This document shows positions 23,520 to 25,263 of a DNA stretch of 64,000 bases, piece after piece. Positions within the stretch are counted from its first letter, which is position 1; each line of letters opens with the position of its first letter. The notes under the pieces were generated by a model, which saw nothing but the letters and a program-made list of their open reading frames with translations, had not been told where the DNA came from and ran no database searches. The position numbers were made by a program, and so were the translations under genes. The DNA is from an uncultured Bacillota bacterium. GTDB taxonomy: Bacteria; Bacillota; Clostridia; Christensenellales; UBA1242. The stretch covers positions 18,053-82,052 of the forward strand of contig URWY01000002.1 of the NCBI GenBank assembly GCA_900551705.1, given 5' to 3'.

Positions 23520-24293
23520 ATGAAGAAAAAATATGCGAAGATAAAAAACTATCAAAATGCACACGACACTTTCAAATACAACACTGAAAGATATTGTCAA
23601 ATAATTGCCAAGAAATATGGAGAAAACCAAAAGCAAGTTAAAGAATATTTTAGCAAATTCTTCGACTTCTTAAATTCAAAAGGTCTTTTAACCGACAATG
23701 TTAGAAAAAGAATCAATCAAAACATCAAAACCTTAACTCTGCAAAGAAATAGTGTTGCAGATATCGGTCAAGGAACAATGGGTGCTTACATGTCTGATAA
23801 AAATCTTTTACGCCTTGCTCCAAGGTTTCGCTACAACAAAGAACATGTTTTAGCGCATGAATTCACTCACCTTTTAACATCAAGTTGCAACTTTAACAAA
23901 AGTCGCTACACAAATATATCTTCTATTGGCAAAAATGCACAAGAATTTTATCAAAAAATTGGTTTTACAACACAAGAAATAAGCACAAAGTTTGAATATG
24001 AAGAATATTCAGGTTCATTTAGCAAAGAAGATTTTAAAAACATTTTATTAGAAGTAATGGATTATGTTTTAGACTCATCAGTTAGCGAAATCCAAGCTAA
24101 TTATCAAAATGTGTTACATAGAGATATTAATTTTATTCCAGGAATGGTTATAAATCTTGGCGAATTAGACTTGTTAGATGATAGTTTTATTGACGAAAAT
24201 GCCCAGAACGCCCTATTTGTAGAGAGAGAGAGAGAGAGAGAGAGAGAGAGAGAGAGAGAGAGTTATCAACAAATTTATAAATACCAATTTTAA
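23520..24293 (+). CDS. Hypothetical HExxH protein; probably the 5' part of a gene split at an (AG)n tract
   Basis: ATG 23520 follows AGAGG. HEFTH is at 23856-23870. The C-terminal (ER)n is encoded by the AG repeat, and the stop lies 28 nt after it. Confidence 0.6.
   Translation: MKKKYAKIKNYQNAHDTFKYNTERYCQIIAKKYGENQKQVKEYFSKFFDFLNSKGLLTDNVRKRINQNIKTLTLQRNSVADIGQGTMGAYMSDKNLLRLAPRFRYNKEHVLAHEFTHLLTSSCNFNKSRYTNISSIGKNAQEFYQKIGFTTQEISTKFEYEEYSGSFSKEDFKNILLEVMDYVLDSSVSEIQANYQNVLHRDINFIPGMVINLGELDLLDDSFIDENAQNALFVERERERERERERESYQQIYKYQF
24221..24262 (+). repeat. Perfect dinucleotide microsatellite (AG)21 inside coding sequence
   Basis: Counted directly: 42 nt of uninterrupted AG. Confidence 0.98.
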
Positions 24294-24306
24294 ATCACCA
24301 AATAGA

Positions 24307-25263
24307 ATGGCGTTTGTTGTTAACAATTATTCAGTTTTTGATGTTAACTATGACGGCAAAAATTTTGTTGTTAGTGCATACATGTCTGATCTCGCAGATT
24401 TAGAATACGAAAATTATGTTCAAGATAACTTATATTTAACTGAGGGTGCAACAGAACTTCTAGCAAGAATGTTCGATTGCCAATACCAAAACAAAGATTT
24501 AATTTCAATGTGTGCATATAACATGAACACAAAATATTGCGAACTTTTGTATCGCATATATGGTGATGAATTCTTTGAAGCCTTTTTTGGACAATCAAAC
24601 GAGCATCTCAGAGACTTAATGGGGCTTGAAGATGAAGAATATAATTTATTCACAGCAAATATAAACATGTTGTTAGAATCAAATTCAAAAGAAGAAATGG
24701 AAACTCTTCACTCATTGATTATGGACACAATCATTTCATGTTTTGCAGATCACTTGATAAACAATATAATCAACAACACAGACATGTTCTTTAATTCAAG
24801 AGAAATTGAAGTAGCAATCGAAAAGTCAATTTTGGAATTTAGCACAAGTATGTATGACGGACTTGGGAACAACCCAGCATACTATCAAAAGTATTTAAGA
24901 CAAAGCAGTTTGGCAAATTTATATAACGATTGCGTAGAAGCCTTGCAAAATGTTATTCAACTTGACGAAGTCGCAAATATAATTGGCTACGAAGAAGTTG
25001 CTAAAATTCAAAATGTTGGATATATGTCAGAAAAGCGCGCAAAAGACTTTTATTCAGACATAAATTTCATGAACGACAACTCTTACTTCTTCACTAAAAA
25101 CAATCTCACTCAAATTAATCCAACCGACTACTTGAATGGTAAAGAATTGGAAGTCTGCGATGTCAACAAACAAGAATATTTGCGCAAAAAAGCAAAATTG
25201 CCAACAATGCGACAAATGAATACTTGGTATCAAAATTATAACAATTCGTTAAATAAAGATTAA
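24307..25263 (+). CDS. Hypothetical protein; probably the 3' part of the split gene
   Basis: 318-aa ORF with no Shine-Dalgarno upstream. Its reading frame stays open back through the whole AG tract to 24223. Confidence 0.55.
   Translation: MAFVVNNYSVFDVNYDGKNFVVSAYMSDLADLEYENYVQDNLYLTEGATELLARMFDCQYQNKDLISMCAYNMNTKYCELLYRIYGDEFFEAFFGQSNEHLRDLMGLEDEEYNLFTANINMLLESNSKEEMETLHSLIMDTIISCFADHLINNIINNTDMFFNSREIEVAIEKSILEFSTSMYDGLGNNPAYYQKYLRQSSLANLYNDCVEALQNVIQLDEVANIIGYEEVAKIQNVGYMSEKRAKDFYSDINFMNDNSYFFTKNNLTQINPTDYLNGKELEVCDVNKQEYLRKKAKLPTMRQMNTWYQNYNNSLNKD

Follow-up and report, generated by a model that had tools for sequence, protein, structure and literature searches.

A probable on/off switch by an AG dinucleotide repeat within the gene for a putative HExxH metalloenzyme of an uncultured human-gut Firmicute

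Results

Two open reading frames, ORF1 and ORF2, follow the obg terminator in the window, as we call the whole 64-kb stretch of DNA that was analysed, and a perfect repeat of 21 AG units lies close to the end of the first (Table 1). ORF1 is preceded by a promoter-like site and a Shine-Dalgarno-like sequence, and a GTG is found at 23514, upstream of its ATG. Its product comprises the N-terminal 247 amino acids of a longer gene, including the Glu-Arg run (ER)n encoded by the repeat, followed by a 10-amino-acid out-of-frame tail, SYQQIYKYQF. An earlier note on this DNA had described the perfect 42-nt AG tract, the HEFTH motif of ORF1, the ORF1 stop 28 nt past the tract, and a downstream ORF of 318 amino acids lacking a Shine-Dalgarno sequence; all of these were found where it had placed them. 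The 20 nt preceding the ORF2 ATG (ttaaatcaccaaatagaATG) contain no GGAGG-like sequence. The frame of ORF2 is open through the whole tract back to 24223, directly after the TAG at 24220-24222, as the note had also stated. It had further calculated that the gain of 2 nt or the loss of 4 nt would yield one protein of about 580 amino acids. In-silico fusion gave the same answer and showed that the loss of a single nucleotide works as well: changes of +2, -1 or -4 nt produce a single ORF of 581, 580 or 579 amino acids, respectively, with no internal stops. The two remaining frames terminate within 10 codons of the tract.

Table 1. Features of the HExxH gene locus (positions in the window)
Feature	Position	Strand	Remarks
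obg terminator hairpin	~23421-23447		Upstream of the promoter-like site; read from sequence
Promoter-like site TTGACA-17-TATCAT	23456..23484	+	11/12 matches; based on the consensus match only
Shine-Dalgarno-like aagaggtg	23509..23516	+	3 nt before ATG 23520
ORF1, 257 aa	23520..24293	+	ATG 23520, TAA 24291-24293
HEFTH (HExxH) motif	23856..23870	+	Invariant across the whole family
Perfect (AG)21 repeat, 42 nt	24221-24262	+	Reads (Glu-Arg)n; proposed frame-switching element
Reading frame for the C-terminal part, open throughout	24223..25263	+	Aligns with residues 242-573 of orthologue P0001
ORF2 as called, 318 aa	ATG 24307, stop 25261-25263	+	No Shine-Dalgarno sequence
EGATE (within YLTEGATELLA)	24442..24456	+	E, G and T family-invariant; candidate third metal ligand
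Terminator-like hairpin, then T run	25266..25285	+	Closes the single transcription unit

The tract lies 41% of the way along the gene and separates the conserved motifs HExxH and EGxT. No other dinucleotide repeat of at least five units is present in the 64-kb window (33% GC), and an AG run of 16 nt did not appear in any of 100 dinucleotide-preserving shuffles. Like the repeats of known contingency loci, (AG)21 is longer than the base composition predicts.

The earlier note had proposed a split gene and a comparison of orthologues, and the latter were found to be nearly all single ORFs rather than separate gene pairs. A search with the fused protein identified 59 homologues (40-97% identity), 57 of which are single ORFs of 567-577 amino acids covering both halves; in the alignment, ORF1 corresponds to residues 1-241 of the single-ORF orthologues. 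A single promoter-like site, a single Shine-Dalgarno sequence and a single terminator are present at the locus, with no such signal between the halves. In every locus that was fetched, the genes follow the same order: endonuclease III, obg, the HExxH gene, a Ham1-like gene and an S8 peptidase gene. Judged from the orthologues and these signals, ORF1 and ORF2 are the two halves of a single gene of ~580 codons that is broken only by the length of (AG)n.

Other repeats and motifs were recorded elsewhere in the window. The minus strand at 28999-31713 contains an ORF of 904 amino acids whose leucine-rich repeats are of the BspA type (PF13306, E = 2e-100), and tandem DNA repeats of 66-69 and 138 nt with ~80% identity extend over 29272-29967 within it; the product is probably exposed at the surface and variable in its number of repeats. 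Degenerate tandem arrays, long and very rich in A and T, occur at 2683-2800, 3992-4086 and 38646-38819, and their periods range from 7 to 59 nt. A SAM riboswitch (RF00162, 50.3 bits) was identified at 62491-62577 on the minus strand, and a T9 run is nearby at 62638-62646.

The window is 100% identical to a human-gut short-read metagenome scaffold, ENA ERZ28620970. Alleles for comparison were recovered by exact-protein look-ups and cluster listings. Scans of JGI metagenomes for the tract with its flanks returned no matches; hence all comparison alleles are ENA, Logan and NCBI contigs, and all allele evidence consists of short-read metagenome assemblies. The tract was absent from both of the loci found in GTDB representative genomes. 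The flanks of the tract are identical across loci L001-L012, all from human-gut assemblies, and no locus shows an interruption of the tract; the tract length takes eight values that cover all three frames (Table 2). Two further backgrounds, P0070 and P0077, encode (ER)3, which corresponds to (AG)10. The gene is in frame only when the number of units, n, equals 1 mod 3 (10 and 16 were observed), so that the 12 independent alleles divide into five in frame (ON) and seven out of frame (OFF). At the level of assemblies, the eight lengths, the identical flanks and the lack of any other lesion support the slipped-strand signature that the earlier note had seen in a single tract.

Table 2. Lengths of the AG tract among alleles
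Tract	Alleles	State of the gene
AG10	L001; also P0070, P0077 (inferred from protein)	In frame, 573 aa
AG11	L007	Out of frame
AG12	L006	Out of frame
AG16	L011, L012	In frame, 577 aa
AG18	L004, L005	Out of frame
AG20	L010	Out of frame
AG21	Window	Out of frame
AG23	L008 = L009	Out of frame

Some of these alleles differ in little but the tract. The window and L004 show no mismatches over 4768 nt and have 21 and 18 units, respectively; L005 and L012 are likewise free of mismatches over 4768 nt, with 18 units (OFF) in one and 16 (ON) in the other. Each of these pairs may represent the same or related samples that went through different pipelines, in which case the length difference could be due to read heterogeneity or to assembler behaviour. 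L006 and L007, with 12 and 11 units, have identical ORF2 proteins. The (AG)12 tract of L006, which is OFF, measures 24 nt and lies on a 27-kb MEGAHIT-style (k141) contig. Since reads readily span a tract of this size, the out-of-frame alleles are argued to be real. The exact 257-amino-acid ORF1, and hence (AG)21, is present on two contigs.

Both halves of the gene are otherwise intact. In all 10 full-gene alleles the N-terminal part measures 701 nt and the C-terminal part 1002 nt, and neither contains a further stop or an indel. Pairwise comparison by the NG86 method gave a mean dN of 0.010 and a mean dS of 0.078 (ratio 0.13). The C-terminal part, left untranslated by OFF alleles, has a dN/dS of 0.07-0.13 even when OFF alleles are compared with each other. 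By these ratios the gene is under purifying selection and functional at the population level, and the low values, also in the C-terminal part of the OFF alleles, argue that the OFF states are young relative to the divergence of the strains. Divergence between the window and L001 is mosaic, with a dS of 0.008 in the N-terminal part and 0.16 in the C-terminal part, a pattern that suggests within-gene recombination between strains.

The region around the repeat exists in other forms. Sister alleles of the same species, with 92-94% protein identity, have a non-repetitive linker, SEETLDQGDRVKEKII, in place of ENAQNALFV(ER)nV, and a third form of the linker is long and rich in Lys and Glu, in a protein of 596 amino acids (P0095, P0098). 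When the window was compared with L015 and L013, the linker region (24170-24270) differed within a gene that is otherwise 92-97% identical. Because the flanks are near-identical, the linker is a swapped or hypervariable cassette. Two of the tract-less alleles carry nonsense mutations, each seen in several contigs: CAA>TAA at Q152 in L015 (region 2401-2420), and GAA>TAA at the invariant E of NTKYCELL in L016 (2509-2511). These independent mutations in repeat-less alleles indicate that the gene has been repeatedly inactivated in the wild. Such a history could be a setting in which a reversible switch is favoured, but it is also consistent with simple dispensability.

Relatives of the protein are few: an exhaustive profile search across 1.84 billion representatives returned only 26 clusters, which make up a very small orphan family. 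In an alignment of 25 members, with identities down to 15%, the invariant residues are M1, H113, E114, H117, G148, E301, G302, T304, Y326 and G341. The spacing between HExxH and EGxT is 36-69 amino acids in short members, 126-134 in another branch and 154-225 in the branch of the window, whose own subfamily has the motifs ~184 amino acids apart. It would appear from the alignment that a module of ~150 amino acids is inserted between the motifs in this subfamily, and that the repeat sits in the module. The earlier note had pointed to YLTEGATELLA in ORF2, which is encoded at 24433-24465, and had flagged as weak its own idea that the metal site might be split between the ORFs. That idea is strengthened by the family-wide invariance of HExxH and of the E, G and T of EGATE, with only 36-69 amino acids between the motifs in short members. 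No known motif matched two segments that are strikingly conserved in P0001-P0127, namely MKKKY.K.KN...F.YN..YC.IIAKKYG at the N-terminus and NDN.Y.F....L..I.P.D...G.......K..Y.RKK.K in the C-terminal region.

A structure or HMM prediction on the fused sequence had been recommended in the same note; the former gave a confident model, and no HMM or fold match was obtained. The AlphaFold model built with the 25-member alignment has a pLDDT of 83.5 and a pTM of 0.75. It predicts strands at residues 73-99, a helix at 107-119 bearing HExxH, which is invariant in 25/25 members, and then a beta-rich inserted module. A low-confidence loop (215-227) leads to helix 228-249, which holds (ER)n. Four strands come after the (ER)n helix, followed by helix 297-316, which opens with EGATE and bears the invariant E301, 36-225 amino acids past HExxH depending on the member; the remainder is an all-helical C-terminal domain.

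Pfam, NCBIfam, PADLOC and PHROGs contained no significant family match, Foldseek comparisons of two AlphaFold models (pLDDT 62 and 83.5) with PDB and BFVD found no significant match, and sequence-profile searches of PDB likewise gave nothing significant; a zincin fold was thus confirmed by none of these profile and fold searches. The protein is consequently called a putative HExxH...E metalloenzyme and is not assigned to a named peptidase family. The only hint came from an IrrE-like phage protein, with a non-significant local match (E = 1.6), and a weak match to PDB 1zxj, the MG377 homologue (E = 0.03), was treated as chance. The possibility that the C-terminal half contains an internal duplication of the HExxH unit (sheet plus helix, AHEFTHLL versus TEGATELL) was considered and dropped, since the short members have EGxT 36-69 amino acids past HExxH and one site fits better than two. 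Inspection by eye revealed no signal peptide, and the neighbours are housekeeping genes.

Discussion

We consider it probable that a hypermutable, slipped-strand repeat toggles this one gene between a full-length and a truncated form, and that the window was captured in the OFF phase. Mispairing of slipped strands at replication would add or remove AG units, and each 2-nt step would put the downstream part in another frame. With n = 1 mod 3 (10 and 16; in the window this would be 19 or 22), a full-length protein with (Glu-Arg)n within a helix would be made. With n = 0 mod 3, translation would stop 10 codons past the tract, and with n = 2 mod 3 it would stop 5 codons past it. Changes of units that keep the frame would also vary the length of the Glu-Arg helix. 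Since the tract lies between HExxH and EGxT, the OFF product would lack the conserved Glu helix and the C-terminal domain; this HExxH fragment is most likely null, judging by the motifs it has lost. Repeat-less strains also carry independent nonsense knock-outs, and the gene would thus seem to be under fluctuating selection. We infer the slippage mechanism, its reversibility, its rate and any adaptive value, as well as metal binding and catalysis by the protein.

The variation could instead be real and non-adaptive, the tract being a mutational hot spot and the OFF alleles recurrent neutral or mildly deleterious knock-outs of a dispensable gene, an explanation to which we give a low probability. 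The proportion of ON alleles, 5/12, is near the one third expected without selection on the frame, and loss of the gene is tolerated, as the nonsense mutations in the tract-less alleles indicate. Furthermore, a cytoplasmic-looking protein with housekeeping neighbours is unlike the products of classical contingency genes, which act at the surface or in restriction-modification. However, no OFF allele has acquired a second lesion, and the C-terminal part retains a dN/dS of ~0.1 even where it is untranslated. The tract is also perfect in every allele, up to 23 units, which implies continuing expansion and not decay. The sequence data cannot fully separate such a hot spot from true phase variation.

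It is improbable, in our judgement, that the true tract is uniform and in frame, for instance (AG)19 or (AG)22, and that the split of the gene is a short-read artefact of a 42-nt repeat. The window comes from a metagenome scaffold assembled from short reads, repeats may be given the wrong size by De Bruijn assemblers, and loci with identical backgrounds differ in length, as assembler ambiguity would also yield. Two of the observed lengths, AG11 (22 nt) and AG20 (40 nt), presumably equal k + 1 for the usual MEGAHIT k values of 21 and 39. Collapse at the k-mer length was rejected as a general account because it would fit these two alleles only and not the 42 nt of the window; tracts of 42, 36, 46, 24, 32 and 20 nt do not equal k + 1 of the usual k lists. 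A miscall is also difficult to reconcile with the two contigs that have the exact 257-amino-acid ORF1, with an OFF tract of 24 nt on a 27-kb contig, and with the need for errors in 7/12 assemblies.

A more elaborate possibility, which we regard as very doubtful, is a three-state switch of a cytoplasmic enzyme in a gut commensal Firmicute, encoded by a repeat within the module that is inserted between the two halves of the putative metal site: full-length protein with a tunable (Glu-Arg)n helix, an N-terminal fragment together with a reinitiated C-terminal fragment (reassembling or separate), and the N-terminal fragment on its own. With n = 0 mod 3, a conserved Met codon inside the gene lies 13 nt beyond the stop, and the three frames could in this way give three states. 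Rescue of the OFF alleles by transcriptional slippage or programmed frameshifting at the dinucleotide tract is unlikely. That ORF1 and ORF2 are separately translated proteins of a two-part enzyme, possibly through reinitiation at ATG 24307, can hardly be right, for although only 13 nt separate the ORF1 stop from the ORF2 ATG and an identical 318-amino-acid ORF2 was called in several assemblies, no Shine-Dalgarno sequence precedes this ATG, its Met is a conserved internal residue in tract-less orthologues, the orthologues in general are single ORFs, and alleles with n = 2 mod 3 have their stop at another place.

The toggling of one gene by its AG tract, the reading that we prefer, resembles sabA of H. 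pylori, one of the outer-membrane protein genes whose coding sequence holds a CT dinucleotide tract; 49% of strains are in frame (PMC2715451). The dinucleotide is the same, since CT read on the opposite strand is AG, both tracts are part of a coding sequence, and changes of units toggle between full-length and truncated products. Many tract lengths exist among strains in both cases, with about half of the strains in frame for sabA and 5/12 alleles here. The H. pylori tracts, in contrast, consist of 6-10 units near the 5' end of surface adhesin genes in a Gram-negative pathogen, whereas the tract described here has 10-23 units, is located 41% into the gene between conserved motifs, and belongs to a protein with no signal peptide in an uncultured gut Firmicute. 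In addition, switching was measured in H. pylori, while here it is proposed from assembled alleles.

Contingency loci of Haemophilus, Neisseria and Campylobacter are based on tetranucleotide or poly-G/C tracts (review PMC11868660). As in these loci, hypermutation would be localised at an over-long simple repeat, and a non-essential gene is ON or OFF depending on the strain; changes of units toggle the frame, and both ON and OFF alleles of an otherwise intact gene were observed. The repeat type and the host phylum are different. The genomes of those bacteria hold many such loci (phasomes), whereas the 64-kb window has one, and their targets are mostly surface structures or restriction-modification genes.

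With respect to the protein, the nearest comparison is with the gluzincins. These zinc metallopeptidases (M1 and thermolysin type) have an HExxH motif and a downstream Glu. In the predicted structure, HExxH is similarly placed on a helix after a small beta-sheet, and an invariant Glu is on a later helix, 36-69 amino acids downstream in short members. The protein differs from gluzincins in that Pfam, NCBIfam, PDB sequences and Foldseek yielded no match, and in the distance of ~184 amino acids between the motifs in the subfamily of the window. Considering the conserved motifs, it is probably a gluzincin-like metalloenzyme with a core formed by HExxH and the downstream EGxT(E/Q).

Conclusions

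For annotation, both ORFs should be merged into one gene that is marked as frameshifted or phase-variable. The best documented cases of phase variation by repeats are from a few pathogens, mostly for surface or restriction-modification genes, and the locus described here is a clean candidate for extending this established mechanism to a new host, an uncultured human-gut Firmicute, and to a new gene, a member of an unannotated family. The ON and OFF states can be read straight from public metagenomes, and the tract would be a practical marker for within-host switching in longitudinal gut data.
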